Counted from the first letter of the stretch, positions 9,216 to 48,130 are shown. The stretch: DNA of 64,000 nt from Methanomassiliicoccaceae archaeon (GCA_963728405.1 CAVSJV010000003.1:224001-288000); one strand, 5' to 3'. The notes: generated from the sequence alone by a model not told the origin. Made by a program: numbers and translations.

Positions 9216-11957
9216 ATGGCATTCGAACTTCTGGACAAGAGGATTCAGCAGGTCCTCCGGGACAAGAACATCCACGAGCCTACCGGCCCCCAAAAAGAGG
9301 CCATCCCTCACATCTTGAAGGGCGAGCATCTTCTGCTGGTGGCACACACCGGAATTGGTAAGACCGAAGCGGCCATGCTGCCCATCTTCCAGCACCTGCT
9401 GGAGACGCCGGGAAAGGGGATCAAGTGCATCTACATCACCCCGCTCCGGGCATTGAACCGGGACATGCTGAAGCGGCTCACCGAGTTCGGCGAGGCCCTG
9501 GAACTGGAGGTGGCGGTGCGCCATGGTGATACCACTCAGGCCGAGCGGCAACATCAGTCCAAGAACCCTCCCGATGTGCTGATCACTACCCCGGAGACGG
9601 TGCAGGTGTTGTTCACCGGCAAGAGGCTGCGGGAGCACCTGTCAAGGGTCCGTTGGGTGGTCATCGACGAGATACACGAGCTTGCCAACAACGAGCGGGG
9701 AGCGCAGCTGTCGGTGGCCTTGGAACGCCTGACCGAGCTGTCCGGCGAGTTCCAGCGCATCGGCCTTTCGGCCACGGTCGGCTCGATCGATGAGGTCGCC
9801 CATTACCTGGGCGGGGCGAAGCGAGAGGTGCGCACCGTCCGCGCCCAGGTCTCCAAGGACCTGGCGGTGACGATCCAATCCCCCGAGGTCCTGGAATCCG
9901 ATCGGGACCTGGCCGGCACGTTGCAGAGCGACCCCCACCTGGTAGCAGGGATGCGTCGGTGCAAGAAACTCATCGAAGATCACCGCTCCACCCTGCTGTT
10001 CGTGAACACCAGGGACACCGCCGAGGCGCTGGCGGCCCGTTACCGCGTCTGGGACGAAGGGTTCAAGGTGGGAGTGCATCACGGTTCGCTGTCCAAGGAT
10101 ATTCGCATCGAGATGGAGGAGGAGTTCAAGCAGGAGCGTCTGAAGGGCCTGATCTGCACGTCGTCCCTCGAGCTGGGCATCGACATCGGCTCGGTCGATT
10201 TTGCCATCCAGTATAACTCGCCGCGGCAGGTGGCCCGGTTGATCCAGAGGATGGGGCGGGCCGGACATTCGGTCGGAGAGCGTTCGGAGGGCGCCATCGT
10301 CGCCTCCAACCCGGATGAGATCGCCGAAAGCCTGGTCATCGCCCGTAAGGCCATGAAGGGCGAACTAGAGGACCTCTGGGTCAGGGAAAACCCCATGGCG
10401 GTGCTCGCCAACCAGTTGGTGGCCATGGCCATGGTCGGGCAGGTGGAGAAGGAGTGGGCCTATCAGGTCATCAGGCGCTCCTATCCGTTCCGGAACCTCT
10501 CCCGCGATGGTTTTCACGGAGTTCTAGAACAGCTTGTCCGCATCGGACTGCTGTTCGACAACGAGCAGAAATATCGCCGCAGCAGCCGAGGCATGCGCTA
10601 CTTCTACGATAATCTGTCCATGATACCCGACGAGCGCACCTACCTCATCCGGGATATCGGCTCGAGACGGATCGTCGGCTCGCTGGATGAATCGTTCGTC
10701 GTGTCCTTCGCCGAACCGTACGCAGCATTCATCACCCACGGGAAGACCTGGAGGATCGTCGAGGTCAGGGAGGACGAGCTGCTGGTGGAACAGATCCGGG
10801 AGATCGGCTCTATCCCATCGTGGGTAGGCGAGGACATCCCTGTCCCCTTCGAGGTCGCCCAGGAGGTCGGCAGGCTCCGGCGGGAGGAGAACTATTCCGA
10901 CTACGCCGGGGACCACGACGCGGTCCGCGAGCTCAGGAAGTACTTTGAGGACCAGCGGAAGGACGGCGCTATACCGTCGGATAGATTGGTCACTCTGGAG
11001 ATGGGTAAGAGGCTTGCCATCCTCAACATGTGCTTCGGGACCAAGATCAACGAGACGGTCTCGAAGATCCTGTCCGTGCTGCTGTCTGCCCGCCTGGGCG
11101 AGAGTGTCGGGGTGCATACTGACCCCTACCGCATCGTCATCGAGCTGCCCCGGGACATCAACCCCCAGATGATAATGGATACTCTAAAATCGATTCGGTC
11201 CGACGGAGTGGAGAGCCTCATCCGGCTGGTGCTCAAATCATCCTCCTACCTTCGATACCGGTTCGTCTATGTGGCCAAGAAGTTCGGCGCGATCGAGAAG
11301 GATGCCGACTATCGGCAGGTGAACTTCACTAGGCTGGCGGAAGCGTTCGAGGACACCCCTCTGTTCGAGGAGGCGGTCAAGCGCGTGCTGTGGGAGGATT
11401 TCGACATCGAGGGGACGGTCGCCGCCATGAGGCGCATCGAGGCGGGGGAGATCTCCTTCCAAGTCATGGGCCTCACCGCCATCGGGAGGGCCGGATTACA
11501 GCATTCCAGGGAGCTTATCATGCCCCAACGGGCCGACCACAGCATCCTGATGGCGCTGAAGAATCGCCTGGAGGTGGAGACGATGAACATGTCCTGCCTC
11601 AGCTGCCAGGCCCAATGGAGGATGAAGCCCAAGGATGCTCCCGATCGAATCACTTGTCCCAAGTGCGGTGGGCAGATGATCGCTGCCCTCCTGCCGTATA
11701 ACCGGGAGGACATCGGGCTGCTGAAGAAGGCCAAGCCCACCGAAGATGAGACCAAGAACATCAGGAGGATGTTCAAGAACGCCAGCCTGATCAAGGAGCA
11801 CGGGAAGCGGGCCATGATGACCTTGGCCGGACGGGGCATCGGCCCAGACACGGCGACCCGGGTGCTCTCTTCATTCTATGATGGAGAGGACGAGTTCCTG
11901 CGGGACATATTGAGCGCCGAGCTTACCTATGCCCGGACGAAGCGGTTCTGGGACTGA
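9216..11957 (+). CDS. lhr: Lhr-like SF2 DEAD/H helicase with C-terminal Zn finger
   Basis: AHTGIGKTEA, ITPLRALNRD, DEIH, GLSAT, TSSLELGIDIG, QRMGRAGH; CLSC..CPKC. Confidence 0.92.
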   Translation: MAFELLDKRIQQVLRDKNIHEPTGPQKEAIPHILKGEHLLLVAHTGIGKTEAAMLPIFQHLLETPGKGIKCIYITPLRALNRDMLKRLTEFGEALELEVAVRHGDTTQAERQHQSKNPPDVLITTPETVQVLFTGKRLREHLSRVRWVVIDEIHELANNERGAQLSVALERLTELSGEFQRIGLSATVGSIDEVAHYLGGAKREVRTVRAQVSKDLAVTIQSPEVLESDRDLAGTLQSDPHLVAGMRRCKKLIEDHRSTLLFVNTRDTAEALAARYRVWDEGFKVGVHHGSLSKDIRIEMEEEFKQERLKGLICTSSLELGIDIGSVDFAIQYNSPRQVARLIQRMGRAGHSVGERSEGAIVASNPDEIAESLVIARKAMKGELEDLWVRENPMAVLANQLVAMAMVGQVEKEWAYQVIRRSYPFRNLSRDGFHGVLEQLVRIGLLFDNEQKYRRSSRGMRYFYDNLSMIPDERTYLIRDIGSRRIVGSLDESFVVSFAEPYAAFITHGKTWRIVEVREDELLVEQIREIGSIPSWVGEDIPVPFEVAQEVGRLRREENYSDYAGDHDAVRELRKYFEDQRKDGAIPSDRLVTLEMGKRLAILNMCFGTKINETVSKILSVLLSARLGESVGVHTDPYRIVIELPRDINPQMIMDTLKSIRSDGVESLIRLVLKSSSYLRYRFVYVAKKFGAIEKDADYRQVNFTRLAEAFEDTPLFEEAVKRVLWEDFDIEGTVAAMRRIEAGEISFQVMGLTAIGRAGLQHSRELIMPQRADHSILMALKNRLEVETMNMSCLSCQAQWRMKPKDAPDRITCPKCGGQMIAALLPYNREDIGLLKKAKPTEDETKNIRRMFKNASLIKEHGKRAMMTLAGRGIGPDTATRVLSSFYDGEDEFLRDILSAELTYARTKRFWD

Positions 11958-15509: not shown

Positions 15510-17177
15510 TCAGCCCTTCCTCTTCATGTGGGGGACGGTGAACACTCCCTCATAAACGAGATTTCCGTCACTGAACTTGGTCCCGATCATGCCCTCCTTC
15601 CACAGCGCCTCCAGGACCGCGATGAGCTTGATCTCCTCGATGCTGGTGAGGTTAGCCAATGCCGAGAAAGAAAGGTTCTGCTTGTTGAGCTCGCGGAGCA
15701 CCCGCTTCTTGTAGTCGGCCATGATCACATCGGGTACATCTCTCGTCTCCGGCCGATTCCTGGTGACGAACAGGACCGCCAGTATGATCAGGACTATGAG
15801 CACGAAGAAGGTCGGCCATTCGATGGAACTCTCGCTCTTGAGCGTCTCCACCTGACCGGCCACCCTGATCTCATGCTCACCGTCGACAAGCCCTGATGCG
15901 GTGAACCTCACCTCCTTGCTCTCTCCTGGACCCAAATCCACGATCTGGGCATCGATGGGCCTACCATCGATGAACAAGGTGACTACGTAACTTCCGGCGG
16001 CTGCCCCCTCGTTGGTGATGAACACAGCGACCAAGACCGACTCCCCTCGGCTGGAGAACAGGACTATGGGCCACCACCTCTGGTCCAGAACGGGCGTCAC
16101 CACAAGTCCCCCAGCGGTCATGAATGCCTCGAGGTCGCCGGTACTGCCGATGGGGCTGGCCAGGACAGCGAAGGTACCGGTGCTCCCGATGAAGCCCCGG
16201 GCCTCCCAGGAGGTCAGCGCCCCGGCCGGCCCAGGCAGCCGGGACCAGTTGCCTTGGGTGGTGAGCATGTGGATGCCTTCGATCTCCTGACCGGCGGGAA
16301 GATCGGAGGAGCTTACTCCCAGGGACAGACCGGCCTGAGGAGAAACGTACACATCGGCCGGGGTGGTGTCGTCGAGGTACCCTTTCAGTTCGTAGGCCTG
16401 CCCCACTATGCTCATCCCCTCCGGGAAAGCCGGAAGTAAGGAATCCACCTCGGTCAAGATGAGATGACTGGGGACCAGCCCGTCCTTCGTCAAGATTGTA
16501 GCGCCCTGGGCGACCGAGAGGCGATGCAGGCCCTGTGGATCGGTGGCCTCGAAGCTCTGCTGGACCACCCCCGTGGAGTTGACGGCCGCCACCGTCTCCT
16601 TGCCCAGTATGTCGATGATGATGAAATGATAGGTCTCCCCGGATGGAGGGATCTCGGCCAGCAGGTAATTGATGGTGAATGACAACCCATCGCCCTGGGC
16701 ATCGTTCTGGGGATTTCCGTTATCCACGAACTCCCAGTTCCAGTGTGTCACCACCGAAGACCCCGACGGCAACGGTCCAACGGTCAGCTGTTTGCCGCCC
16801 GACGGATAGCTGGGGAACTCATATATGGTGGTCGGGAAGATGAGCGTGGTCTGTAGGTCCTCGGCCGCAAGGGTGAGCCGCAGGTACTTGCTGAGGGCGG
16901 CCCCGTCCTCCCCGTGGTCCGTCTCCACGATGTCACTTAGCCACAGCGTCAGATAGGCCGTGGTAGGACCGGCGTTCCGGATCTCGACCTCCTTGGTACC
17001 GCTGTCGCCTGGCTGGATGGCCCCCATGGTCCAGGCCACGCTGCCCTGTCCTCCCAGGACGAGATCTTCCGGACCATCGTCGGCGCCGCGGACCGGGGAC
17101 GGTAGGGCGGACACCAGCATGAGGATGATTAGGACGAGGACGACCGTACGTCCGTGCCTAGGCTCCGCCCTGATCAG
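15510..17177 (-). CDS. Membrane-anchored surface protein: Sec signal, TasA-like domain, Ig/CARDB-like domains, TM, short cytoplasmic helical domain
   Basis: IQPGDSGTKEVEIRNAG..NDAQGDGLSFTINY resembles the TasA-like gene; ITNEGAAAGSY..LGPGESKEVRF; C-terminal TM. Start uncertain (CTG 17177 overlapping the upstream TGA). Confidence 0.7.
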   Translation of the reverse strand: MIRAEPRHGRTVVLVLIILMLVSALPSPVRGADDGPEDLVLGGQGSVAWTMGAIQPGDSGTKEVEIRNAGPTTAYLTLWLSDIVETDHGEDGAALSKYLRLTLAAEDLQTTLIFPTTIYEFPSYPSGGKQLTVGPLPSGSSVVTHWNWEFVDNGNPQNDAQGDGLSFTINYLLAEIPPSGETYHFIIIDILGKETVAAVNSTGVVQQSFEATDPQGLHRLSVAQGATILTKDGLVPSHLILTEVDSLLPAFPEGMSIVGQAYELKGYLDDTTPADVYVSPQAGLSLGVSSSDLPAGQEIEGIHMLTTQGNWSRLPGPAGALTSWEARGFIGSTGTFAVLASPIGSTGDLEAFMTAGGLVVTPVLDQRWWPIVLFSSRGESVLVAVFITNEGAAAGSYVVTLFIDGRPIDAQIVDLGPGESKEVRFTASGLVDGEHEIRVAGQVETLKSESSIEWPTFFVLIVLIILAVLFVTRNRPETRDVPDVIMADYKKRVLRELNKQNLSFSALANLTSIEEIKLIAVLEALWKEGMIGTKFSDGNLVYEGVFTVPHMKRKG

Positions 17178-18526
17178 GCGTAGTATATCCTCACCTCTTG
17201 GAGCGTTGGAGTGTTGGCGGAATTTGTGGTACCGAGGACCGCCCGCCATTGGACATATCTTCCGCTCAGTCCGCTCAAAGAGGCCGAAGTTCCCGCCCCC
17301 AGCGCTTGCCATGGAGCAGCGGTCAGGCCGGCCATGGTATCAGCGGCACGCAGCTCCAACGTCAATCCAGTTGACGCAGCCAAGGTCCGGTCCCAGAACG
17401 CATAGTCCAACTTTGTGCTCGAGACCCCTGTGTCCAGGACCGTGGAGGTGACCGTACCCGTGGTGGCGTAGCCGACCTTGATAACCGGTACGTAGACAAG
17501 ACAGCCGCCCGCGTTCACCGCGGTCGGGAGGCTCGACCGAGCGGTCCAGCTATCGGTTGTGATGGCATACTGGGAGAAGGCGGTCTGGGAACCACCGGCC
17601 AACGCATAGATGGCGTTGGAACCGTCGAAAGCCAGGCCGCCGCCGGCGCCTACCGTGGTCGGTTCGCTTCCCCTGGTCGTCCATGAGTTGCTGGCGACCG
17701 TGTACATGGAGAACTTGTTCCGGCCGTTGCCATTGGTCTCGTACATCGTCCCCGTCGGCCCCAACACCAGCTCGGCACCGGCACCGATGTTCCAGGGGAC
17801 CTTGGCCATGGTCGTCCAGGTGGAGGTGGCGATGGTGTACCTCCAGAAAGTCTTGGTCGTATCTCCTCTAGTGACGTAAAGGGACCCGCTGCTGAGGGCC
17901 AAGGATGCTCCCGTCCCGACCTGCGAGGGAGTCTGCGCCACAGTGGTCCAGCCCGAGGTAACGGGGTCGAACCTCCAAATATTCCTTCCCCCGGCGCCCT
18001 GTAGCACGTACAGGCGGCTACCGTCCCAGGCCAGGCTTCCGCCGCTCCCCACCGGACCGGGGGTGGTGGCGACGATGGTCCAGGAGTTCAAGACGACATC
18101 ATAGCGCCCGATGTTGCTACCCCCTCCACCCTGGAGCGCATATACGTACCGCACCTGGTCGAAGGTTAGGGCCGCGCCGTCGCCCACGGTGAAGGGGATC
18201 GAAGTCATGGCGGACCAAGCGCCCGTCGTAAGATTGTAACGATAGAAGGTCCGGGAGTTTCCTCCTGCCAGAGCGTAAACGCCCGCGTCCTTGTAGGACG
18301 AGCCGAGGATGACGTTACCCGGGCTGGTGGAGGCGTCCGTCCTCACCAATGTGCTGGCCTGGAAGTCCGCGGCCGTGGTCTGGGTCCAGGTCCGAGGGAT
18401 CCACCCGGTGGCGGTGTTGCCGGCAGAGATCTCACTGTCAGTATAGACGCAGCCGATATCGCCCATGCCAATCATCAGGACCAGGAGGATGGCCGCGATC
18501 AGTATTCCATTGTTCGAAGGCCTCAC
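17174..18526 (-). CDS. Kelch-repeat beta-propeller protein with SipW-type signal peptide
   Basis: Signal peptide then VYTDSEISAGNT; six repeats of YALxGG..xxRYD..W..P..VG.G..L. Confidence 0.8.
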   Translation of the reverse strand: MRPSNNGILIAAILLVLMIGMGDIGCVYTDSEISAGNTATGWIPRTWTQTTAADFQASTLVRTDASTSPGNVILGSSYKDAGVYALAGGNSRTFYRYNLTTGAWSAMTSIPFTVGDGAALTFDQVRYVYALQGGGGSNIGRYDVVLNSWTIVATTPGPVGSGGSLAWDGSRLYVLQGAGGRNIWRFDPVTSGWTTVAQTPSQVGTGASLALSSGSLYVTRGDTTKTFWRYTIATSTWTTMAKVPWNIGAGAELVLGPTGTMYETNGNGRNKFSMYTVASNSWTTRGSEPTTVGAGGGLAFDGSNAIYALAGGSQTAFSQYAITTDSWTARSSLPTAVNAGGCLVYVPVIKVGYATTGTVTSTVLDTGVSSTKLDYAFWDRTLAASTGLTLELRAADTMAGLTAAPWQALGAGTSASLSGLSGRYVQWRAVLGTTNSANTPTLQEVRIYYA

Positions 18527-19029
18527 TTCCCAGCCTCCGAAGATGCTGTCCCCTCCTTATTCTTGACCGGTGGCTTCCCGCTGCCTAGGGCCAGGACCAG
18601 AAGGGCCACCAGTATGATCAAGGCCCAGCCGAAGGGGCCCTTAAGAAAATCGATGACATAGCCCAGGAGCGGGACGTTACCGCTCACCTTCCCCACGACG
18701 CTTTCAAAGGGGACGGGGGCAGGGTCCTGATGCTGGTTGGCATCACCCTTGGTGTAAATGGTAAGATTGGCTTTGTCCACCTCGACAATCCGGTGGCAGA
18801 CCAGGGTCCCGCCCTCCGCGTGGAAGCTGATGACGTCCCCTGCTTGAAGGTCCCCGGGCTCGCAGGGCGATGTCACTAGCAGGTCCCCTACACCGATCGC
18901 AGGGGCCATGCTTCCCGATTGCACGACGTCCAGTCGCCACCCGAACACCGGGGCCAGCACCCCGACCAGGGCCAAGGCTAGGAGTATGACCAGTATGGCC
19001 GTCCCTAGGTGGCTAGACCTGAGCTTCAC
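18523..19029 (-). CDS. sipW: SipW/Sec11-type signal peptidase I
   Basis: VVQSGSMAPAI.VGDL, VCHRIV, TKGDAN..DP (Ser/His type). Confidence 0.9.
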   Translation of the reverse strand: MKLRSSHLGTAILVILLALALVGVLAPVFGWRLDVVQSGSMAPAIGVGDLLVTSPCEPGDLQAGDVISFHAEGGTLVCHRIVEVDKANLTIYTKGDANQHQDPAPVPFESVVGKVSGNVPLLGYVIDFLKGPFGWALIILVALLVLALGSGKPPVKNKEGTASSEAGK

Positions 19030-19091
19030 TATTCACCTCGTCAGGCTGGTAAAGATATTAGGCGGTCCTTGCGGACCGCCGAACAGCCCGA

Positions 19092-19673
19092 TCAAGCCTG
19101 GATCAGGGCGAATCCGATGTTGAAGGTGCAGGTATCCCCCATTATCTCATTTCCCACCGCATCGTAGTCGATGGAGTACGAGATGCTAAGGTAGGTGGTG
19201 GCACTGTGCGCAAGGGAGCCCAGGTCCCAGGAAGTGGTGGCGCCGCTGAGCTTCCCACTATACTTCACAGAGTCGGTGGCTGAATCAAAGACCCCATTCC
19301 CATTGACGTCCACAAAGATGGTGATGGCCATGGCATCAGCTAGCTCACCATTGTCAGGGGTCGGCTCCGGTTCAGGGGTGGCCCCAGGACCGTTGACGAT
19401 CGAGGTGATCTGTCCAGTAAGTGTGCCATCGATTGATCCAGCGTTGGTGAGCGTGATTGTGCTGACACCGGTGGAGCCAGGCTTCATGTCCGTGGCAGTG
19501 AAGGCGACCCCAGAGGGGGCCGCGGTCGACAGGGTCAGGTCCAGTGTTCCGGCGGTGAACGAGTTGCCGGTGCTGGTCTCGGTGTCGTTAAAATATGCAT
19601 ATATGGCGCCGCTGCTGAACACGCCCACGATCGCCACCGCTATCAAAGCTATCGCTAATTTTTTCTTTATCAT
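19092..19673 (-). CDS. TasA/camelysin-family fibre subunit with SipW-cognate signal peptide
   Basis: MIKKK-hydrophobic-GAIYA|YFNDTETSTGNSFTAGTLDL; MKPGSTG..LTNAGSIDG; NEIMGDTCTFNIGFAL. Confidence 0.85.
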   Translation of the reverse strand: MIKKKLAIALIAVAIVGVFSSGAIYAYFNDTETSTGNSFTAGTLDLTLSTAAPSGVAFTATDMKPGSTGVSTITLTNAGSIDGTLTGQITSIVNGPGATPEPEPTPDNGELADAMAITIFVDVNGNGVFDSATDSVKYSGKLSGATTSWDLGSLAHSATTYLSISYSIDYDAVGNEIMGDTCTFNIGFALIQA

Positions 19674-19873
19674 TTTTCCCATCCCTTTTTCGGGGGTGCG
19701 ATACCCATCGCTCCGTGCACCCCGCTGCGCCAAAGAATAACGGAGGACAATATAATTGTTATCATCAACGATATAAAATAATAAGGCCACGCATTATAAT
19801 ACTCATTGAGCGACCATGGCCCATCGTAATCTCGTACGATATTTGGAATATATCTATGAATTTCGTATGAATA

Positions 19874-22576: not shown

Positions 22577-24412
22577 TTGCCCCGAAAGAAGAAGGCGAGG
22601 GAGGCCAACCCCCCTCAGGCCGAGGGTAGTTCTCTCGCATTGGTCCCAGGTTCAGGGGAAGCTGCCGCAGCCCAAGCTGAGGAGCTTCGCAAATGGATGG
22701 CCGGAGAGTCGACCATACTGGCATGGCTGGAGGAGGACCCCGCTCAGCAGCCCACTTTCTATACTGACGCCCTGGACGTACTGGACCTCGACCCGGAGCT
22801 GAAGGAGCGGGTGGCGAAATACGAGGAGGAGATCGCCTCGCTCCGGCGGAGGCTGGAGAGCGCCGGGGACGGCGCCGGTCCTGGGGTAGGCCAGGAGAAC
22901 ATCAGGTTGAAGGTCGAGCTGGACCGGCTGACCAAGGCCAATGGCGAGCTGCGGGACCGCACGGTGTCCACCGCCCCTGAGGCGCTCAAGGAAAGGGAGA
23001 CGACCCTGCGGGACAAGGAGGCCGAGCTGGAGCTGAGAGAGAAGGCCCTGAGCCTGGGCGGCGGGGACGGCGCCGATATGTTGGAGCGGTACCGGGCCGA
23101 GCTCAGAGAGAAGCAGGCCGAGGCCAGGAGCAGGGAAGGCGATCTCGCGGTGAAGATCGAGCAGCTCGAGAGGGAGCTGAAGACCCGGGAGATCGAGATC
23201 AAGCTCCGCGAGGACGAGCTCAAACTGGCCAAGATGTCCAAGCCCGAGGCGAGCAAGGAGATAGAGGAGAAGCTCCGTGGGTTCCAGGAGAAAGAGAGGA
23301 GGATCCTGGAGCTTCAGGACACCATCAGCCGGCTGAAGGACCTGCTGACCGAGCGAGAGGACGAGCTGAAGGGCCTAAAGGAGATCATCAGCTACAAGGA
23401 GCAGGAGCTCTCCCGTCGAGAGGAGGACCTGCTCTTCCGCGAGCGCAAGATCACCGAGGAGAAGCGCCGTCTAGAGGACACCAGGCGCTCCACGGGTGGA
23501 CTGGAGGAAGCCGAGCTCAAGAAGCGCCTGGAGGAGCTGCGGGCCGAGGTCGACAAGCGGGAGCGGGAGATCAAGGCCAAGGAGGACTTCCTCCGGAACA
23601 AGGAGGCGGAGCTCCGCAAGAGGGAGCAGGGCGCCATCGAAGAGGAGCTCAAGCATAAGGACGAGGATATCGCCATCGAGGTGGAGGCGGCCAAAGCTAA
23701 GACCGGCAACCCCCGCCTGGACGACCTCCTGCTGGGGGGCATACCGTTCGGCTCCAACGTTCTCGTCTACGGCCCGCCCTTCGTAGGGAAGGAAACGATG
23801 GTCGACCAGTTCATCGCCGAGGGTCTGAAGAAGGGCATCCCGGCCATCTGGGTCTCCACTGATAAGACCACTGCCGATCTCCGGGAGGAGATGAAGCTGG
23901 TGCTGCCGGCCTACGAGGACTACGAGGCCCTGGGCCTGGTACGATACATTGACTCATACTCCCGCAGCATGGGCGACACCACCGAGGACAAGTACACCGC
24001 GTACATCGACGAGCCGACCGCCCATGACAAGCTCATGGACGCGGTGGAAGACGCCGCTAAAGCTTTCAAGGAGAAGCATGAGTACTACCGCCTGGCCTTC
24101 CGGACCATCTCCACCCTGATCGCGTACTCGGACCCCAACACCGCCTTCCGTTTCCTCTCCCCGTTCGCCGGTCGCCGCAAGAGGGACCGAGCCGTATCCA
24201 TGTACACTATCGAGAAGGGCATGCATGGAGACCAGGAGATCCAGATGCTCGGCTCGATCATGGACGGCATGATCGACTTCAAGATCGATCAGCTACGGAC
24301 GTTCTTCATGGTGCGGGGCATCACCGACGTGCAGTCCCGGTCCTATGTAAGATATAACGCCACCCGCCACGGCCTGAGCATTGGCTCGTTCGCCCTTGAC
24401 CATATAAAGTAA
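22577..24412 (+). CDS. Long coiled-coil protein with C-terminal degenerate KaiC/RAD55-like domain
   Basis: ~300 aa E/K/R heptads, then KTGNPRLDDLLLGGIPFGSNVLVYGPPFVGKE..DGMIDF. Confidence 0.85.
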   Translation: MPRKKKAREANPPQAEGSSLALVPGSGEAAAAQAEELRKWMAGESTILAWLEEDPAQQPTFYTDALDVLDLDPELKERVAKYEEEIASLRRRLESAGDGAGPGVGQENIRLKVELDRLTKANGELRDRTVSTAPEALKERETTLRDKEAELELREKALSLGGGDGADMLERYRAELREKQAEARSREGDLAVKIEQLERELKTREIEIKLREDELKLAKMSKPEASKEIEEKLRGFQEKERRILELQDTISRLKDLLTEREDELKGLKEIISYKEQELSRREEDLLFRERKITEEKRRLEDTRRSTGGLEEAELKKRLEELRAEVDKREREIKAKEDFLRNKEAELRKREQGAIEEELKHKDEDIAIEVEAAKAKTGNPRLDDLLLGGIPFGSNVLVYGPPFVGKETMVDQFIAEGLKKGIPAIWVSTDKTTADLREEMKLVLPAYEDYEALGLVRYIDSYSRSMGDTTEDKYTAYIDEPTAHDKLMDAVEDAAKAFKEKHEYYRLAFRTISTLIAYSDPNTAFRFLSPFAGRRKRDRAVSMYTIEKGMHGDQEIQMLGSIMDGMIDFKIDQLRTFFMVRGITDVQSRSYVRYNATRHGLSIGSFALDHIK

Positions 24413-24428
24413 AAGATAAGGGAAAGGG

Positions 24429-24860
24429 TCAGGCGAACTCTGGACCCGAGGGGGCCCGGGGCGCCGGTCCGGCCTTCTTCTCTATGTTGATGCGCGGGAG
24501 CGGGAAGGGCGGCGGCAACCGGATATCGCGAGCGATGAGCAGTGCGGTGGGGATGCAGTTAGAGACGACGATGTTGTGGACAACGTTCGCGGTCTCGTTG
24601 GGCATGGAGCCGGTGGCGGTCCACTCCTTCATCAGCTCGTCCACGTCCCCCTCCAGCAGCACGCTGCCTTCGATCTTAATGAAGCCCATGCCAACGTAAT
24701 TGATGGTGAAACGGAACTCCACCGTGGCCGTGCGGTCGGAAGCGCGGTTTATCTGGGTGACAGTGCTGTTATGATCGATACGTACGTTAGCCACGTGCTC
24801 TCCCGGACGGGAGAACCGCTTGGCCTCGATGGTGTTGGTCTCAAAGCCCATGAGTTGCAT
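24429..24860 (-). CDS. Conserved archaeal hypothetical protein (possibly SecB-like fold)
   Basis: VEFRFTINY..IKIEG..ARDIRLPPPFPLPRI pattern. Confidence 0.65.
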   Translation of the reverse strand: MQLMGFETNTIEAKRFSRPGEHVANVRIDHNSTVTQINRASDRTATVEFRFTINYVGMGFIKIEGSVLLEGDVDELMKEWTATGSMPNETANVVHNIVVSNCIPTALLIARDIRLPPPFPLPRINIEKKAGPAPRAPSGPEFA

Positions 24861-24936
24861 CTTAGCGCCTTTCGAGCAATGACCTGTCCGGCTATTAGAG
24901 ATTTGCCTGACCATCGGGTATGAAAAAGAGATGGAG

Positions 24937-25009
24937 TGCCGCAGGCCGGACTTGAACCAGCGACTTCAAGATCTTCAGTCTTGCACTCTCCCAGCTGAGT
25001 TACTGCGGC
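24937..25009 (-). tRNA. tRNA-Phe (GAA)
   Basis: GCCGCAG acceptor stem, CAAGA-CTGAAGA-TCTTG anticodon arm, GCTGG-TTCAAGT-CCGGC T arm. Confidence 0.95.
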
Positions 25010-25214
25010 GTCGAGAGTCTGTAAAGGCCCCGCCTATAATAAATTTACCTAACCAACGTGAATAGTTAGAAGGGTCCGGATATCCGATTATTTTTATTAT
25101 TATGGTTTCTTACGAGCCAGTTAGAAGGTTTTAAGACCTCACCGACCTTTTCCCATCGTCGGATTGGGGAGTATAGATAAAATGTCGGTACCAGTGCGCA
25201 CTAGAGCCCTGAAA

Positions 25215-26114
25215 ATGTCGAGCAGGCTGTCTTTTCTGAGGAAGGACCAGCAGGGCGTCGCCTCGACCATAGGCACCATCATGGCGCTACTGGTTTTTTT
25301 GGCATTCATGGCCATGATCACCAACAGCTACGTTCCCGCCTGGATGCTGGACAATGAGCGTTCGCACATGAACCAAGCCATTGACCAGTTCGGCGATCTC
25401 AAGGGCAAGGTGGACGGCATGATCAACCAGCAGCGGGTCACCGGGGACAACTCCATGAAGATGTATGCTCCCATGACCATGGGCGCACAGGGCGTCCCGT
25501 TGTTCGCCGCTCCCACCGTTGGCTTACTTAGTTACATGCCCCAAGGCTCCAATGCTACCGGCATCCATGTCTGGTTCAGCTACACCACCTCCACCTCCAC
25601 CATCCCGGTCGATGTGACCGGCGGCGGCAAGGTCGAGCTGTACGTTCCTAACCGTTACTACGTGCAGCAATGGATCGGCTATGAGAACGGAGCCATCATT
25701 GTCAAGCAGGAGGACGGCCAGGCCATTCGCGCCTTCCCTAACCTGGACATATCAAAGATCGGGAACAGCATCAACGTAGCGTTCACCGAGGTGGATCTCA
25801 TCGGAACGAACCAGTCCCTGACCGGTTCGGACTCGGTCGGCTTCAGCCTAGACCTCGTATACATCGATGCCCAGACGTACACTGTGGGCGGGGACTTCAA
25901 GTGGCACCTGACCACCACAACGACCTATGGAGAGGCCTGGTGGAAATATTTCAATGAGACCATGGCCGAGGCCAACCTGATCCCCTCGACCGATTACACG
26001 CTCCTGATGACCGCCCTGCCCAACGGCGCCTCGATCATCGACCTGACCTTGAACAACTGCGGCCAAATGAACTACAACCGCGCGTATGTCAGCATGACCT
26101 TGCTGACCTCCTGA
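25215..26114 (+). CDS. Archaeal type IV pilin-like protein (class III signal peptide)
   Basis: LRKDQQG|VASTIGTIMALLVFLAF; YENGAII motif; first gene of the pilus locus. Confidence 0.75.
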   Translation: MSSRLSFLRKDQQGVASTIGTIMALLVFLAFMAMITNSYVPAWMLDNERSHMNQAIDQFGDLKGKVDGMINQQRVTGDNSMKMYAPMTMGAQGVPLFAAPTVGLLSYMPQGSNATGIHVWFSYTTSTSTIPVDVTGGGKVELYVPNRYYVQQWIGYENGAIIVKQEDGQAIRAFPNLDISKIGNSINVAFTEVDLIGTNQSLTGSDSVGFSLDLVYIDAQTYTVGGDFKWHLTTTTTYGEAWWKYFNETMAEANLIPSTDYTLLMTALPNGASIIDLTLNNCGQMNYNRAYVSMTLLTS

Positions 26115-26123
26115 GGTGCTAAA

Positions 26124-27872
26124 ATGCAAGAGGCTGAACCACGAGTGAAGGGAAGCGCCAAGACCGCCCAGACCGCTCCGGCCTCATCGAAGGAGAGCAC
26201 CCGGGACAAAGTGAGGGATGGTTATCTCAAGTTCCTCCGCCGAGTGGTCCCCAACCGAGCTACCAGGGTTCGATTGTCCACCATCGAGGTAGAGCAACGC
26301 ATCGAATGGTCCAAAGGCCGAGGGTCGGTGGTCACTGAGATCCCCAAGATCGAGAACCCGTCGATCGAGACGATAGAGGTCTATCCGGTCCTGGAACCGT
26401 TCGCCTATACACGTATCACATACAACAACGAAACAAGCGAGTACTTCCTGGAAGCGCTGGAGCCAAAGCTTTCCCCGGACGATGAGAAGCTCCTGCTCCT
26501 GATCAAGGATACCTTGGGCCGGACACTGGGCTACGAGTGGGACAAGTTCACCACCCTGGACAAGAAGGAGTACCTGGTGGAGAGCGTCGAATCGTACATC
26601 CACAGCCGGGGTGTAAAGGTCAACCCACTGCTCAGGAAAAAGCTCAACTACTACATTCTGCGCGATTTCGTCGGGTACGGCAAGGTTGACATCCTAATGC
26701 GGGATGAGAACGTCGAGGATATCTCCTGCGATGGGGTCGGCATCCCGCTCTTCGTCTTCCACCGCAAGTACGGCAACCTCAAGAGCGCTCTGGTCTTCGA
26801 CGACGAGGACGCCCTGAACTCATAAGTGGTCTCGCTCGGCCAGAGAGGGGGCAAGCAAATCTCGGTCTCCAACCCCATCCTAGATGGTACGACCCCCGAG
26901 GGGCACCGTGTCAATGCGACGTACTCCCGGGAGGTAAGCACGAAAGGCTCGACCTTCACCATTCGACGGTTCAAGGACAAGCCCTGGACCCCCGTCGACC
27001 TGGTGAAGACCAAGACGGCCAGCCCAGAGATGGTGGCGTACTTCTGGCTGGGAGTGGAGAACGGCGAGTCCATGATCATCTGCGGCGGCACCGCTTCCGG
27101 AAAAACGTCCACGCTCAATTCCATCGCCCTGTTCATCCCTCCCGGGGCGAAGATCGTCACCATGGAGGATACCAGGGAGATCAATCTCCCCCACATGAAC
27201 TGGATCCCTGGCACCACTCGGTCGGGAGTAGGCGAAAGGGGACCGGACGGCAAGACGCCCGGTGAGATCGATATGTACGACCTCATGCGCGCCTCCCTCC
27301 GTCAGCGGCCGAACTACATCATCGTCGGTGAGGTCAGGGGCAAGGAGACCTACACCATGTTCCAGGCCATGGCCACGGGCCATACGACCTATTCGACCAT
27401 GCATGCCGATTCGGTGCAGTCGATGGTCAACAGGCTGGAGAACCAGCCCATCAACTGCCCCCGTATCCTGCTGACCGCCCTGCGCAATGTCATCATCCAA
27501 TCCCAGGTAAGGGTAGGACAGGACCTGGCCCGACGGATGAAACAGGTCATCGAGATCGTCGGTTTCGAGCCGGACACCAACGAACTGATCTCCAACACCG
27601 TCTATGAATGGGACCAGGCCACCGACCGCTTCGTGTACAAGGGCCACAGCTTCCTGTTTGACAAGATCATGGAGATGAAGAACCTCACCCACGATGAGAT
27701 GATGAGCGAGTTCACCCGGCGAGTGGACCTCATCAAGTACATGGTGTACCGGGATATCACCGACCACCGCAAGATCTGGGAGCTAATCAATCAATATTAC
27801 AAGGACCAGGAGAAGACCATCAAGAGGGTCCGCCGGGAGCTGCAGGAAGGGGGGATAGCTGTTGTCGCCTGA
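26124..27872 (+). CDS. Type IV pilus/T2SS assembly ATPase 1 (FlaI/TadA family); in-frame TAA at 26823-26825
   Basis: ORFs 26124..26825 and 26826..27872 are in one frame; EDISCDG, GGTASGKTS, LRQRPNYIIVGEVRG, STMHA. Confidence 0.88.
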
Positions 27873-28902
27873 GATCTCCGACTCATTCACCAAGTTCGAT
27901 TCTAAGAAAAAGAGCTATATGAAGACCAAGCGGACCTCGGAGCATACCACGAAGTGGGGCCCCCACCTGGTCAAGCTGCCCGAAGGCGTCCTCCCCGACT
28001 ACATCGAGCTCACGTCATACGAGATGTTCTGCTGGCGGACCATGGGCAAGGCCGTCAAGTTGCGGGCCAAGCCCAACCCCAAGCTGGAACAGCAACTGCT
28101 CCAGGCCCATCTCAGGATGAGGCCGGAAGAATACCTGGCCTACGTCTGGATGAGCACATTGCTGGTCTTCGTGGGATTCCTCGCTACGGCCTCGCTGTTC
28201 GGCGGTGTGCTCTTGGCCTTCCTGCACGTCTCAGCAGCCCTGGTGCTGGTGTTCTTCATCATTCTGGTGATGCTTCCTCCGATGATGACCTTCATGGTGC
28301 TTTTATCGCTCCCAGGCTCCAAGGCCAAGACCCGAGCACGGGACATCAACAAGCGCATCGGACCGGCCATGAGCTTCATCTCCGCCATGGCGTCCGCGGA
28401 CGTCAACATCGATGTCATATTCAAGGAGCTGGCCAAGCAGGACATTTATGGCCAGATCAAGAACGAGGCCGAATGGATCACCAGGGACACCGAGCTCCTG
28501 GGGATCGATATCCTCACCGCTATAAACCTAGCCGCTCAGCGCACTCCATCCATCAAGTTCCAGGAGTTCCTGCAGGGGGTGGTGACCTCGTCCACCTCCG
28601 GAGGACAGCTAAAGCCGTACTTCCTGCAGAAGGCCGAGCAGTTCGAAAAGGAGGGCAAACTGGAGATGCGGTCCCAGCTGGAGACCCTCGGCCTGATGGC
28701 CGAATCGTTCGTAACCGTAGTGGTGGCATTCCCGCTTTTCTTGGTGGTCATCATGGCAATCATGGCCATTGTGCCGGGCGGGGGCGGCGGCTCGTCGACC
28801 ACGGTGCTGCTGCTTGAATTGGTCATAGGACTGATGATCCCGTTCTCCCAGTTCGGGTTCATATTCTTCATTTGGAACATGACCCATGAGTCGTCGCTGT
28901 GA
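27862..28902 (+). CDS. Type II secretion F-domain (TadC/FlaJ-like) membrane platform protein
   Basis: TM pairs; GIDILTAI..TPSIKFQEFLQG..SGG. Confidence 0.85.
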   Translation: MSPEISDSFTKFDSKKKSYMKTKRTSEHTTKWGPHLVKLPEGVLPDYIELTSYEMFCWRTMGKAVKLRAKPNPKLEQQLLQAHLRMRPEEYLAYVWMSTLLVFVGFLATASLFGGVLLAFLHVSAALVLVFFIILVMLPPMMTFMVLLSLPGSKAKTRARDINKRIGPAMSFISAMASADVNIDVIFKELAKQDIYGQIKNEAEWITRDTELLGIDILTAINLAAQRTPSIKFQEFLQGVVTSSTSGGQLKPYFLQKAEQFEKEGKLEMRSQLETLGLMAESFVTVVVAFPLFLVVIMAIMAIVPGGGGGSSTTVLLLELVIGLMIPFSQFGFIFFIWNMTHESSL

Positions 28903-28911
28903 GGTGAGGAA

Positions 28912-29814
28912 ATGGCCGAAGACATAATGGACCTGGAGCAACTGGACCTGAAGAAGCGGGACTATGGCCAGACCATCCTCATCGTTGGGGTGGCGGTTGG
29001 AGCCCTATTGTTCGCCATAGGGTTCTTGGACGGGATAGGGGGCCTAGGAATGCCCTTTGAATGGATCGACTACCTGATACTCGGCCTAATGGCCATCACC
29101 GGGCCGTACGGCTTTTATCAATCCAACCGAAGGAAGAAGATCCGGGAGATCGAGGTCCGGCTGCCGGAATTCCTGAGGGATGTGGCCGAAGCCGGCCGTT
29201 TCGGCATGACCCTTGCCTCGGCCATCAAGGTCGCCTCCCGCGGCAAGTACGGGCGCCTCACCCCGGAGATACGCAGGATGGCCGCCCAGATCGACTGGGG
29301 CGTGCCTGCGTCGGAGGCCATGAGACTGTTCGCCGAAAGGGTGGACACTCCCCTAGTCAAGCGGATGACGTCCATCATTATCAAGGCCAATGACGCCGGC
29401 GGCTCGGTCGCCGATGTGCTGACCATGGTCGCTCACGACGCCCGGGAGACCATGCTCAACCAGACCGAGCGCAAGATCTCCATGTCGACCTACATGATGG
29501 TCATCTACATCGCCTTCGCAGTGTTCATCGCCACCATCTTCATTCTCAACACCACCTTCCTCCCGAAGATGATGGAGGCGGGTCAATCGGTGGCCGCGGG
29601 CGCCGAGAAGGCGGGCATAGATGTTAACAGCCTATCCACCATCCAGACGAGCGTAATACCAACGATTCAGCTGCTGTTCATCATCTCAGTCATGATCCAC
29701 GCGCTGGGCGACGGCATCCTGGCCGGAGTACTGGCGGACGGCCAGATATCTACAGGCATGAAGCATAGCTTCATCATGCTCCTGATCGGGCTGGTGGGCA
29801 CGAGGTTGATCTGA
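28912..29814 (+). CDS. Second type II secretion F-domain (TadB/C-like) membrane protein
   Basis: LPEFLRDVAEAGRFGMTL..YGRLTPEI..WG..GGSVADVL. Confidence 0.85.
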   Translation: MAEDIMDLEQLDLKKRDYGQTILIVGVAVGALLFAIGFLDGIGGLGMPFEWIDYLILGLMAITGPYGFYQSNRRKKIREIEVRLPEFLRDVAEAGRFGMTLASAIKVASRGKYGRLTPEIRRMAAQIDWGVPASEAMRLFAERVDTPLVKRMTSIIIKANDAGGSVADVLTMVAHDARETMLNQTERKISMSTYMMVIYIAFAVFIATIFILNTTFLPKMMEAGQSVAAGAEKAGIDVNSLSTIQTSVIPTIQLLFIISVMIHALGDGILAGVLADGQISTGMKHSFIMLLIGLVGTRLI

Positions 29815-29815
29815 C

Positions 29816-31498
29816 ATGGACGAGGCAGTGAGGCAGGATGAGATAGAGCCCCTGTTCGAGGAGGAGCCCCGGGCCCGGAAGGAGAAGCTGACCCTGACGT
29901 CCAGATATCTCTCGTTCCTGGTGAAGGTCCGCAACAAGCCCATGCGGGTCCGATTACCCAGCGGGACCGCCGTGGAATCGACAATCATCACTGAAATTCC
30001 CCGAATCTCGGACCCCACCATCGAAGAGGTCGAGATCACCCCCATCGAGGAGCCGTACTCCTTCGTGCGCATCAACTACGATAGCACCGCCGGGGAGTAC
30101 CTTTACGAGGTCATCGAGCCCCGGCTGACCGAGGACGAGCAGAACATCCTTGACGTGCTGAAGGGCGCGCTCATTGTCTCCCTGAACCTGTCCGATACCC
30201 ATGATATGGAGGAGAAGCGGGCCGTGCTGAGCAAGGCCACCGACCGCCTGCTGACCAAGCTTGGGGTCACCTTGCACCCCGTGTCCCGCGAAAGGGTGAT
30301 CTACTATCTGCGCAGGGACTTCACTGGCTATGGGGTCATCAACATCATGATGGTCGACCCCAGCATCGAGGACTGCTCCTGCGACGGCGTGGACATCCCA
30401 TTGTACATCTACCACCGCAAGTACGGCAGCATCAAGAGCAACATCCGGTTCGATAGGGAGGACGAGCTGGACGCCTACGTCGTCTGGCTGGCCCAGAAGT
30501 GCGGAAAGCATATCTCGGTGGCGAACCCGCTGCTGGATGCCACCATCCCCGACGGCTCCAGGCTTAACGCCACGCTGGGGAAGTATGTCACCAAGAGGGG
30601 TTCGACCTTCACTATCCGGCGTTTCAAGGACAACCCATTCACACCGGTGGACCTGCTGAAGTTCAAGACCATGTCCACCGAGATGATGTCGTACCTATGG
30701 ATATCGGTAGAGTTCGGCTCATCCATGCTGGTCTGCGGTGGCACCGCCTCTGGTAAGACCACCACGCTCAACGCCATCCTGCTATTCATCCCGCCCCAGA
30801 TGAAGATCGTTAGCATCGAGGACACCAGGGAGCTGAACCTTCCGCACGAGAACTGGATCCCCGGCCTTACCAGAGAAGGGTTCGGGGGCAAGACCGGGAC
30901 CAATAACGGTACTATCAACATGTTCGACCTGCTCACAGCCGCGCTGAGGCAAAGACCCCAGTACCTGATGGTAGGTGAGGTCAGGGGCAAGGAAGCATAC
31001 GTCGTGTTCCAAGCTATGGCCACCGGGCACATATCGTACTCGACATTCCACGCTGAGGACGTCCAGGCCATGGTCCATCGTCTGGAGAACGAGCCCATCG
31101 ATCTGCCCCGAGCGTTGCTCACCGCCCTTAACCTGGTAATGCTCCAAGGGCAGGTGAAGGTAGGCACCAAGATGACCAGGCGGGTCAAAGGTCTGACCGA
31201 GATCGTGGGCATGGACCCCGAGACCGGGGAGCTCATAACCAACTCGGTGTTTTCCTGGAACCCCGCCGACGACAGCTTCACCTACTCCGGCCACTCCTAC
31301 ATCTATGAGAAGGTCCGCGCGGTGCGTAACTGGTCCCCCCGGGAGATGGAGCGGGAGGTCAAGAGACGCATCGACATCCTGGAGTACATGAAGAAGATCG
31401 GTGTCAACAACTATCGCCAGGTGGCCAAGATCGTCTCCGCCTACTACAAGGACCCCGAGAGGGTCCTGAAAGAGGTCAGGGAAAAGACGGCCGAGTGA
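29816..31498 (+). CDS. Type IV pilus/T2SS assembly ATPase 2
   Basis: GGTASGKTT, SIEDTREL, LRQRPQYLMVGEVRG, STFHA. Confidence 0.9.
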   Translation: MDEAVRQDEIEPLFEEEPRARKEKLTLTSRYLSFLVKVRNKPMRVRLPSGTAVESTIITEIPRISDPTIEEVEITPIEEPYSFVRINYDSTAGEYLYEVIEPRLTEDEQNILDVLKGALIVSLNLSDTHDMEEKRAVLSKATDRLLTKLGVTLHPVSRERVIYYLRRDFTGYGVINIMMVDPSIEDCSCDGVDIPLYIYHRKYGSIKSNIRFDREDELDAYVVWLAQKCGKHISVANPLLDATIPDGSRLNATLGKYVTKRGSTFTIRRFKDNPFTPVDLLKFKTMSTEMMSYLWISVEFGSSMLVCGGTASGKTTTLNAILLFIPPQMKIVSIEDTRELNLPHENWIPGLTREGFGGKTGTNNGTINMFDLLTAALRQRPQYLMVGEVRGKEAYVVFQAMATGHISYSTFHAEDVQAMVHRLENEPIDLPRALLTALNLVMLQGQVKVGTKMTRRVKGLTEIVGMDPETGELITNSVFSWNPADDSFTYSGHSYIYEKVRAVRNWSPREMEREVKRRIDILEYMKKIGVNNYRQVAKIVSAYYKDPERVLKEVREKTAE

Positions 31499-40425: not shown

Positions 40426-40560
40426 TAAAAAGGTATCTGCGGTGAACTACTCCATCTGATAAAATGGGGTTTCTTGCTTCAACCACTCGACTTGCATCAT
40501 TCTCAATGATGTAGCGGTCCAATGTCCACAAGCGAGTTCGGGCAGTTCCTGCCCTACCTT
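40426..40560 (-). ncRNA. Predicted omega/reRNA scaffold overlapping the tnpB 3' end plus flank-derived guide
   Basis: Hairpins GGGCAG-GAA-CTGCCC, CATCATT-GAG-AATGATG and CCATTT-TATC-AGATGG before TAGTTCAC; position expected for IS605 reRNA. Confidence 0.6.
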
Positions 40561-41680: not shown

Positions 41681-41794
41681 GTCGAACGGAGAGGTCAGTG
41701 AAAGTGCCCGTTTTCGCTTATCCTTGAGATGCCAGGGGGCATGTTCGCACGAAGATAAAAAAGATTATGACCCGCCCGGGGGCGGTAAGGGGTT

Positions 41795-45741: not shown

Positions 45742-45751
45742 GTCATTTCAC

Positions 45752-48130
<2,379 letters not shown>

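Follow-up and report, generated by a model that had tools for sequence, protein, structure and literature searches.

Can four consecutive archaeal genes encode a complete surface fibre, from a tip through a shaft to a base that holds it to the cell? This question is raised by a locus within a 64-kb stretch of DNA from a Methanomassiliicoccaceae archaeon (GCA_963728405.1, CAVSJV010000003.1:224001-288000; hereafter the window), in which positions 15510-19790 of the minus strand carry four consecutive open reading frames (ORFs), g1-g2-g3-g4. A sequence-only reading of the same stretch had claimed a four-gene set of TasA-like shaft subunit, SipW-type peptidase, Kelch tip and membrane anchor, and all four ORFs are found on the minus strand where it had placed them and as it had described them. 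We think it fairly probable that they form a compact cassette for a fibre of the TasA superfamily that is anchored to the cell and whose subunits are joined by donor-strand complementation, with the N-terminal strand of one protein filling a groove in the next. The gene set is non-random, the four genes travel together in Methanomassiliicoccales and Dehalococcoidales, and the logic of tip, shaft and anchor is well supported by sequence, profiles and synteny. The accompanying suggestion that the organism is probably a methanogen has a single basis, namely that its closest relatives are Methanomassiliicoccaceae metagenome-assembled genomes (MAGs); Methanomassiliicoccales are methanogens.

Proposed donor and acceptor parts among the four proteins

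The candidate shaft subunit g1 (193 amino acids [aa]; 19092..19673, on the minus strand like every feature of the cassette) is counted here from the ATG that gives MIKKK, with a further ATG three codons upstream at 19682. Its proposed nature as a TasA-like protein with a SipW-type signal is borne out by two profiles that it matches above their cut-offs: Pfam PF12389 (Peptidase_M73; 50.6 bits, cut-off 22.5, E 2.7e-13), over residues 2-82 only, and TIGR04088 (cognate_SipW; 28.7 bits, cut-off 19). The equivalog model of Bacillus subtilis TasA, NF046066, gives 20.8 bits, far below its cut-off of 450, and by these matches g1 is a member of the TasA family, not an orthologue of B. subtilis TasA. A profile of the g1 family (g1 and 13 relatives, 14 sequences) found the TasA fibre 8AUR (E 7.7e-5) and the TasA monomer 5OF1 (E 8.3e-5) in the PDB, together with weak matches to AbpX chains (9SJ2, E 2e-3; 9RHP, E 3.2e-3). 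Since residue 2 of the mature TasA chain in 8AUR pairs with F28 of g1, cleavage is predicted at A26/Y27, after A26, and mature g1 would begin YFNDTETSTGNSFTAG. The protein can therefore be divided into a signal (residues 1-26; 19596-19673), a putative donor segment of this sequence (residues 27-42; 19548-19595) and a jelly-roll body that runs from the donor segment to the C-terminus. The translated signals of g1 and g3 are of the SipW/Sec type and contain no twin arginine.

The gene for the peptidase of the set, g2 (168 aa; 18523..19029), starts 62 nucleotides (nt) downstream of g1 and encodes a SipW-like signal peptidase I of the archaeal/endoplasmic reticulum (ER) type, with 94.6 bits on TIGR02228 (cut-off 51.85). 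The Bacillus SipW equivalog NF046067 gives 91.6 bits, below its cut-off of 190. Hydrophobic segments are found at the two ends of g2 only, and G39, S40, M41, P43, H79, R80, G95, D96 and D102 are invariant in 12/12 cassette peptidases; of these residues, S40, H79, D96 and D102 are the ones that we take to be catalytic. Judged by these matches, g2 is an intact archaeal-type signal peptidase I, and its profile matches nothing else within the window that could be a second peptidase.

The core of the argument lies in what the other two proteins share with g1, for which we compared the g1 profile with those of the g3 family (10 sequences) and the g4 family (42 sequences) by hhalign. The g3 family aligns with the g1 family over residues 1-44 only, that is, over signal and donor motif (95.5%, E 1.5e-8), in keeping with the proposal that g3 has a donor-like N-terminus but no TasA body. 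The g4 family aligns from residue 39 of g1 onward (g1 39-193 with g4 32-177; 98.2%, E 3.1e-14), and mature g4 therefore begins where the donor segment of g1 ends, just as the absence of an N-terminal donor segment from g4 had been proposed. A relaxed donor motif, D-x-[EKRQ]-x-[STAG]-x-x-N, sought in the first 90 residues, follows the same distribution: it is present in 13/14 g1-like proteins (the remaining one has N instead of D), in 10/10 g3-like proteins and in 0/42 g4-like proteins. The pattern occurs in two places in the window and is so loose that this count alone is not beyond chance, so that its weight comes from its position and from the hhalign result. Across the whole window, the profiles of g1 and of the g4 N-domain match only g1 and g4, reciprocally (E ~5e-7).

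In TasA filaments, the donor segment D31-S41 is described as pairing with residues 220-230 near the C-terminus (PMC10151520). The most conserved stretch of the g4 family (N158, Q161, G162, F167, I169, Y171, L173) aligns to the C-terminal strand of g1 and would correspond to the TasA strand that pairs with the donor segment.

The putative donor-only protein g3 (450 aa; 17174..18526), a candidate tip or initiator, consists of a signal (residues 1-26; 18449-18526), a donor segment (residues 27-42; 18401-18448), a conserved N-frame (residues 43-77; 18296-18400), six Kelch repeats (residues about 78-345; 17492-18295) and a conserved C-frame (residues 346-450; 17177-17491). Among the 10 family members D30, S34 and N37 are invariant and E32 is nearly so, and g1 has D30/E32/N37 at the same positions. 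The profile of the SipW-cognate signal speaks for g1 but not for g3 of the window, which gives no match to TIGR04088 at E <= 0.1. The Kelch region is recognised by Kelch_6 (34.4 bits), Kelch_1 (30.7 bits) and Kelch_3 (24.3 bits), all above cut-off, and six copies of [YFW]x6-8W[STA]x3-6P, spaced about 45 residues apart (at residues 95, 142, 184, 228, 275 and 320), predict the six-bladed propeller that had been claimed.

This Kelch block is an insert between the two halves of a conserved frame. All relatives of g3 share the signal with the donor motif, a short N-frame (W-x-Q-T...D-F...G...P-G) and a C-frame of about 105 residues, while the middle is Kelch in the window and in two related loci (L001, L002), nothing in three others with a g3 of only 175 aa (L003-L005), Laminin_G_3 with DUF2341 in L008 and L009, DUF2341 alone in L012, and one domain without family assignment in L006. 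Searches with the frame itself returned little: four short or insert-bearing members gave nothing in Pfam at E <= 0.01; 11 short family members matched Kelch, one Gly_rich_2 and one weak PF12389 in Pfam and no frame family, and in NCBIfam TIGR04088 (2/11) plus one spurious MCR match. A g3-frame profile run against 177,635 PDB sequences found no TapA chain and, as its single match, PrgB at E 1; the best score in the Atlas language-model search was 0.88, to unnamed clusters, and a word-based search with residues 1-80 found 2 proteins only. Against 1.84 billion cluster representatives, the g3 profile has 4637 matches at E <= 1e-3, a number inflated by the Kelch repeats; within the first 70 residues, 53 of the best 150 (176-918 aa long) contain the donor motif.

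The last protein, g4 (~555 aa, its start being uncertain; 15510..17177), has the architecture that had been claimed for it, namely a Sec-type signal ending VRG/ADD, a TasA-like N-domain (residues 32-180; 16638-17084), two immunoglobulin (Ig)-like domains (residues 184-342; 16152-16628), a CARDB-like domain (residues 352-452; 15822-16124), a membrane helix (residues 454-473; 15759-15818) and a winged-helix-like cytoplasmic tail (residues 483-544; 15546-15731). CARDB PF07705 is matched with 24.8 bits (cut-off 22.7) over residues 378-445. An AlphaFold2 (AF2) model of g4 from 42 sequences, with a mean predicted local distance difference test score (pLDDT) of 85.3, shows a signal helix at residues 9-23, beta domains at 37-174, 184-342 and 352-452, a helix at 454-473 and a tail of three helices and a hairpin at 483-544. 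With the whole model, Foldseek found generic multi-domain beta proteins only. With a model of the N-domain alone (149 aa, 13 sequences, pLDDT 80.3), the TasA chains 5OF2, 5OF1_A and 5OF1_B are the best three of 350,542 PDB chains, at Foldseek probabilities of 0.99-1.00. PF12389 has precomputed matches in 11/42 g4 homologues, and in a language-model search 28/30 of the nearest named Atlas clusters carry PF12389 (best score 0.93), so that profile, fold and language-model neighbours all point to the TasA fold expected of an anchor that accepts the strand. The cytoplasmic tail and the Ig-like middle have no match in Pfam (ZapD at E 0.14 for the tail, nothing for the middle). This tail is restricted to the subclade of the window, where it measures 75-85 residues compared with 5-22 in bacterial members.

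The start of g4 needs separate comment. Genes 2-4 had been claimed to overlap at their stop and start codons, which holds for g2/g3, where the junction reads GTGA, but not in canonical form for g3/g4, where it reads CTGA with no ATG, GTG or TTG; this second overlap holds only if CTG initiates. The codon at 17177 is CTG, and ATG codons are available at 17249 (upstream and unconserved), at 17312 and, within the signal peptide, at 17120. In relatives, g4 starts on or just after the g3 stop, with ATGA in L003 and L004 and GTG in the homologue P0002, while L001 (7938-8100) has CTA at the conserved start and an in-frame TAA upstream that closes the frame. The database version of window g4 (P0001, 536 aa) begins inside the signal peptide. 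Because the window reads CTG at the conserved place, its g4 needs a non-canonical start, reinitiation or the upstream ATG at 17249, of which a non-canonical start or reinitiation is likely. A strong GAGGTGAGG run is present in the last g3 codons, near the g4 start (17120-17312, minus strand).

A gene set found in two lineages

The g4 family is small: of the candidates scored, drawn from 5.8 billion clusters, 42 proteins reach E <= 1e-3. A scan of 185,579 species genomes yielded 13 related loci, 5 in Methanomassiliicoccales MAGs and 8 in Dehalococcoidales/Chloroflexota MAGs, and the expectation that the four genes co-occur elsewhere was confirmed in that the order g1-g2-g3-g4 is kept in 9/13 of them (L001-L006, L008, L009 and L012). 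L007 ends at a contig edge, so that just the tail of g3 before g4 is visible. L011 and L013 are expanded by extra TasA-like genes and, in L013, by a second peptidase, and in both the gene directly upstream of g4 encodes a protein with the donor motif but no detectable TasA body. All upstream of g4, L013 (2420-7952) encodes two signal peptidases, one with a 160-residue low-complexity tail, three TasA-like proteins (204, 311 and 212 aa), and a protein of 405 aa that has the donor motif but not the g3 frame. In L010, g4 stands directly behind genes for a histidine kinase and three response regulators.

The five archaeal loci share the whole neighbourhood of the window (deoxyhypusine synthase, DUF531, cassette, purM, FtsJ) and are counted as one lineage, with the bacterial loci as an independent replicate. 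In a maximum-likelihood tree of 54 g4 sequences, the labelled archaeal and bacterial rows are split by one branch with support 100/100; the tree is unrooted and therefore gives no direction of transfer. A tblastn search with g4 found no match among 72,556 plasmids.

A proposed anchored fibre and its alternatives

How such a fibre would be put together can be outlined from the distribution of parts. The peptidase g2 would cleave g1 and g3 after their signals (at A26/Y27 in g1) and thereby free their N-terminal strands. The strand of g3 would fill the groove of the first g1, starting and capping the distal end as TapA does for TasA, and g1 would chain head to tail, each subunit giving its strand to its successor. 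At the cell-proximal end, the strand-less domain of g4 would take up the strand left free by the last g1; g4 would thereby terminate growth and anchor the fibre, with the Ig/CARDB stalk spacing it from the membrane and the membrane helix fixing it to the cell. The variable middle of g3, here Kelch, would serve as a binding module at the tip. As the conserved four-gene set includes no ATPase, folding and strand insertion would drive assembly. The division into a donor-plus-acceptor shaft, a donor-only tip and an acceptor-only anchor put forward by the sequence-only reading fits every sequence test, with the roles themselves being deduced from those parts.

Several observations count against an anchored fibre. 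On PF12389, whose cut-off is 22.5 bits, the g4 of the window narrowly misses with 21.3 bits (residues 51-169, profile positions 55-185/196), the Foldseek matches of its N-domain to TasA are modest (E 2.6e-3 to 1e-2, template modelling score ~0.5, no match at E <= 1e-3), and the g4 family profile run against PDB sequences found CARDB-like stretches only and no TasA chain; g4 may, moreover, fill its groove itself. Neither the window nor L001 offers g4 a canonical start codon at the conserved place. The g4 of L010 (1-5507) is N-terminally truncated: its first residue falls near position 86 of the family alignment, and the 4.3 kb upstream of it contain no gene for a TasA-like protein, a peptidase or a tip. 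This copy is a remnant, a rearrangement or a misassembly. Because of the neighbourhood shared by the archaeal loci, the synteny amounts to about two independent lineages, not nine. With a 175-aa g3 without insert in three archaeal loci, adhesion cannot be the conserved role of g3; since some tips have no insert, this role is more likely initiation or capping, with binding as an added function. Finally, strand insertion from g1 into g4 and from g3 into g1 is what we infer from sequence comparison, all relatives are MAGs, and the fibre is known here from genes alone.

Some of these points would also fit a secreted matrix fibre that is not an anchored pilus at all. Here, g1 would polymerise like Bacillus TasA, g3 would be a TapA-like initiator, and g4 would be a separate, co-regulated surface protein, either an adhesin or a receptor for the matrix, with a TasA-like domain left over in degenerate form. 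B. subtilis TapA is described as acting at initiation and as unlikely to act beyond it (PMC10151520), the 175-aa g3 of L003-L005 has no binding module, and a combination of Ig-like domains, CARDB and membrane helix is common in archaeal surface proteins, with a 1493-aa CARDB protein encoded in the window itself; the partner-less g4 of L010 would fit as well, but that copy is truncated. A merely degenerate domain is hard to reconcile, however, with the loss of the donor segment in 42/42 g4 proteins while the strand that would pair with it is their most conserved motif, and a merely co-regulated gene with the position of g4 directly after a donor-only gene in 11/13 loci from two domains of life. 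We therefore consider a secreted matrix fibre unlikely.

Another possibility keeps g4 in the assembly process and makes it a platform instead of an anchor, that is, a membrane-fixed, chaperone-like acceptor that would transiently hold the strand of the newest g1, hand it to the next incoming subunit and so catalyse growth at the base. The features of g4 suit this role as they suit that of an anchor, the cassette has no chaperone or usher gene, and the likely weak, non-canonical g4 start in the window fits a factor of low copy number. We find no evidence for strand exchange, though, and TasA and AbpX are described as polymerising in vitro without such a factor (PMC10151520, 10.64898/2026.01.04.697558), while the published outline of the haloarchaeal Tafi fibre treats the equivalent protein as a terminator; a platform thus seems distinctly improbable to us. 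That g1 and g4 are camelysin-type secreted metalloproteases and not fibre parts is hardly credible, as the family name Peptidase_M73 is its sole support, translations of g1 and of the g4 N-domain contain no HExxH motif, g1 aligns with both donor strand and body of TasA, and the donor motif is common to g1 and its non-homologous neighbour g3.

The anchored fibre can also be read more boldly, as the smallest complete donor-strand pilus machine yet outlined. A new subunit, its SipW-type signal still uncleaved, would be held by that signal while accepting into its groove the strand of the subunit before it, and growth at the base would therefore be gated by peptidase cleavage. Growth would be brought to a stop by membrane-fixed g4, whose winged-helix-like tail would report or regulate the completion of the fibre. 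The tip would be a donor strand with a split frame that takes Kelch, laminin-G or DUF2341 modules, and the kit would have crossed once between the two lineages. To our knowledge, both lineages are without a peptidoglycan wall (Dehalococcoidia lack peptidoglycan), which on this account is why a membrane anchor would stand in place of a sortase or S-layer homology (SLH) type of attachment. That cleavage-gated growth, a stop by g4, a plug-in tip and a single transfer should all hold jointly is, in our judgement, doubtful.

Genomic surroundings and relation to known fibres

The cassette is preceded by an AT-rich spacer between the DUF531 gene and g1 (19674..19873, minus strand) that is likely to be the promoter region. 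A scan for promoters of the bacterial type, which does not model archaeal ones, found its sole match inside this spacer at 19777-19749. Within the cassette, a GC-rich hairpin with an 8-bp stem, a GCAA loop and a following T-rich tail lies 12 nt after the g1 stop (19061..19080, minus strand). Strong hairpins are present in the g1-g2 spacer at 7/11 loci examined (the window, L001, L006, L008, L009, L011 and L012, counted with no shuffle control) and absent from it in L002-L005, and terminator-like sites are not enriched in the cassette region, with 3 found compared with 2.9 in shuffles. The hairpin might conceivably be an attenuator or mRNA stabiliser that sets a high ratio of shaft to minor parts, a suggestion that we make only weakly.

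Three kb from the cassette and on the opposite strand lie type IV pilus-like genes. They belong to a type IV pilus/archaellum-like locus (22577-31498, plus strand) with genes for two T2SSE ATPases, two T2SSF membrane proteins and a KaiC-like ATPase whose N-terminus is a long coiled coil; the gene for this last protein, together with its neighbours, adjoins the cassette also in L001, L002, L004 and L005. The 1493-aa CARDB protein mentioned above (32215-36696, minus strand) has four CARDB stretches and C-terminal zinc-ribbon/double zinc ribbon domains, and several small ORFs without Pfam match follow it. Farther away, the window contains a gene of the IS605 OrfB/TnpB-like type (40447-41571, minus strand; OrfB_IS605 and a Cas12f1-like TNB domain) and gyrase genes with inteins (41718-48112, minus strand), of which gyrB carries an intein splicing domain and gyrA is split in two ORFs; the upstream ORF of gyrA (44476-45741) includes a LAGLIDADG/intein segment. 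There are also two large helicases of the Lhr type (9216-11957, plus strand; 56393-61771, minus strand), the second (1792 aa) being a fusion with an AlkZ-like glycosylase domain and MarR/HTH segments.

Chaperone-usher pili (type 1/P) are built by inserting an N-terminal donor strand into the groove of the neighbouring subunit, tip first and with a special end subunit at the base. The proposed fibre would likewise join its subunits by N-terminal donor strands, but the cassette comes without chaperone, usher or outer membrane, and the inferred polarity would be reversed: the tip adhesin of chaperone-usher pili is acceptor-only, whereas here the tip would be donor-only and the base acceptor-only.

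Closer to the cassette is the tapA-sipW-tasA operon of B. subtilis, which also pairs a major PF12389 subunit bearing a SipW-type signal with a peptidase of the ER/archaeal type encoded beside it. Like g3, TapA is a minor protein that has nothing but the N-terminal strand in common with the major subunit; it is described as donating its N-terminus to TasA, the proposed recipient being the first subunit (PMC10151520). Unlike their Bacillus counterparts, g1 and g2 fall below the equivalog cut-offs for TasA and SipW, the frame of g3 has no detectable likeness to TapA, and the Bacillus operon includes no acceptor-only membrane anchor such as g4.

The tip and anchor parts had been put forward as previously undescribed, and in this respect the sequence-only reading was mistaken, since Tafi, with TafC and TafF, and AbpX-like loci already carry such a model. 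In Tafi, TafC is described as a tip with a laminin-G-like domain that gives its N-terminal strand, and the shaft consists of TafE and TafA. Processing of TafA requires TafD, a dedicated signal peptidase I, as a knockout shows. The proposed anchor is TafF, whose Sec signal differs from the signals of the donors, whose N-domain resembles the subunits and whose C-terminus has membrane helices; for TafC and TafF, the assigned roles are based on AlphaFold models (PMC11821415, PMC12337348). Compared by description, the proposed parts list and polarity are the same as in our cassette, down to the Sec-signal anchor and the dedicated peptidase, and the tips of both carry a lectin-like domain, which is laminin-G-like in TafC and Laminin_G_3 in bacterial g3 relatives. 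Unlike the cassette, Tafi uses twin-arginine translocation (Tat) signals for its subunits, where g1 and g3 have no twin arginine; it has an adapter subunit and three membrane helices in TafF, where g4 has one; and the shaft of the cassette is of the canonical TasA family. The DUF5305 accessory gene of Tafi has no match in the four cassette genes or in 38 other ORFs of the window.

In a preprint on AbpX, the proteins or fibres AbpA, AbpX, TasA, Tafi, threads and cannulae are united in one superfamily, AbpX-type loci are described as encoding a signal peptidase, predicted tip and minor subunits and, in bacteria, anchors with SLH domains or LPXTG motifs, and AlphaFold3 (AF3) places these bacterial anchors in strand-linked oligomers with the subunit (10.64898/2026.01.04.697558). 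The cassette resembles AbpX loci and the AbpA-AbpB loci of bundling pili in that a donor-strand fibre would be encoded beside a signal peptidase I (10.64898/2026.01.04.697558; PMC9245690). It differs from the AbpX loci, as described there, in its anchor, which uses a membrane helix in place of cell-wall attachment of the SLH/LPXTG type, and in its peptidase, for which ten membrane helices are described in AbpX loci while g2 is hydrophobic at its two ends only.

A full-text literature search for TasA with Methanomassiliicoccales has Wang et al. 2022 among the matches listed, a study that mentions, but does not examine, homologues of PF12389 in Methanomassiliicoccales and other archaea (PMC9245690) and whose supplements may list such loci. 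The same search for TasA with Dehalococcoid gave only papers that are unrelated by title and start of abstract. For related archaeal fibres, a layout of tip, shaft and anchor has been proposed before, whereas for this gene set it has not; what is new here is the combination of a canonical TasA shaft, a SipW-type peptidase and two unnamed accessory families that is common to Methanomassiliicoccales and Dehalococcoidales.

Our analysis defines these two families as the g4 anchors, with 42 proteins, and the g3-type tips, with at least 53 of the best 150 clusters at 50% identity. The question posed by the cassette is the same for TafC, TafF and the anchors near AbpX, whose roles rest on structure prediction alone. 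With four genes, no ATPase and modular tips, the cassette would be a tractable system for studying how strand complementation without chaperones starts, is oriented and stops. If our interpretation is true, members of the canonical TasA family form not only loose matrix fibres but also true pili that are anchored to the cell and have a defined tip and base, and they would do so in relatives of gut and sediment methanogens and in organohalide-respiring Chloroflexota, whose surface appendages are almost unstudied.

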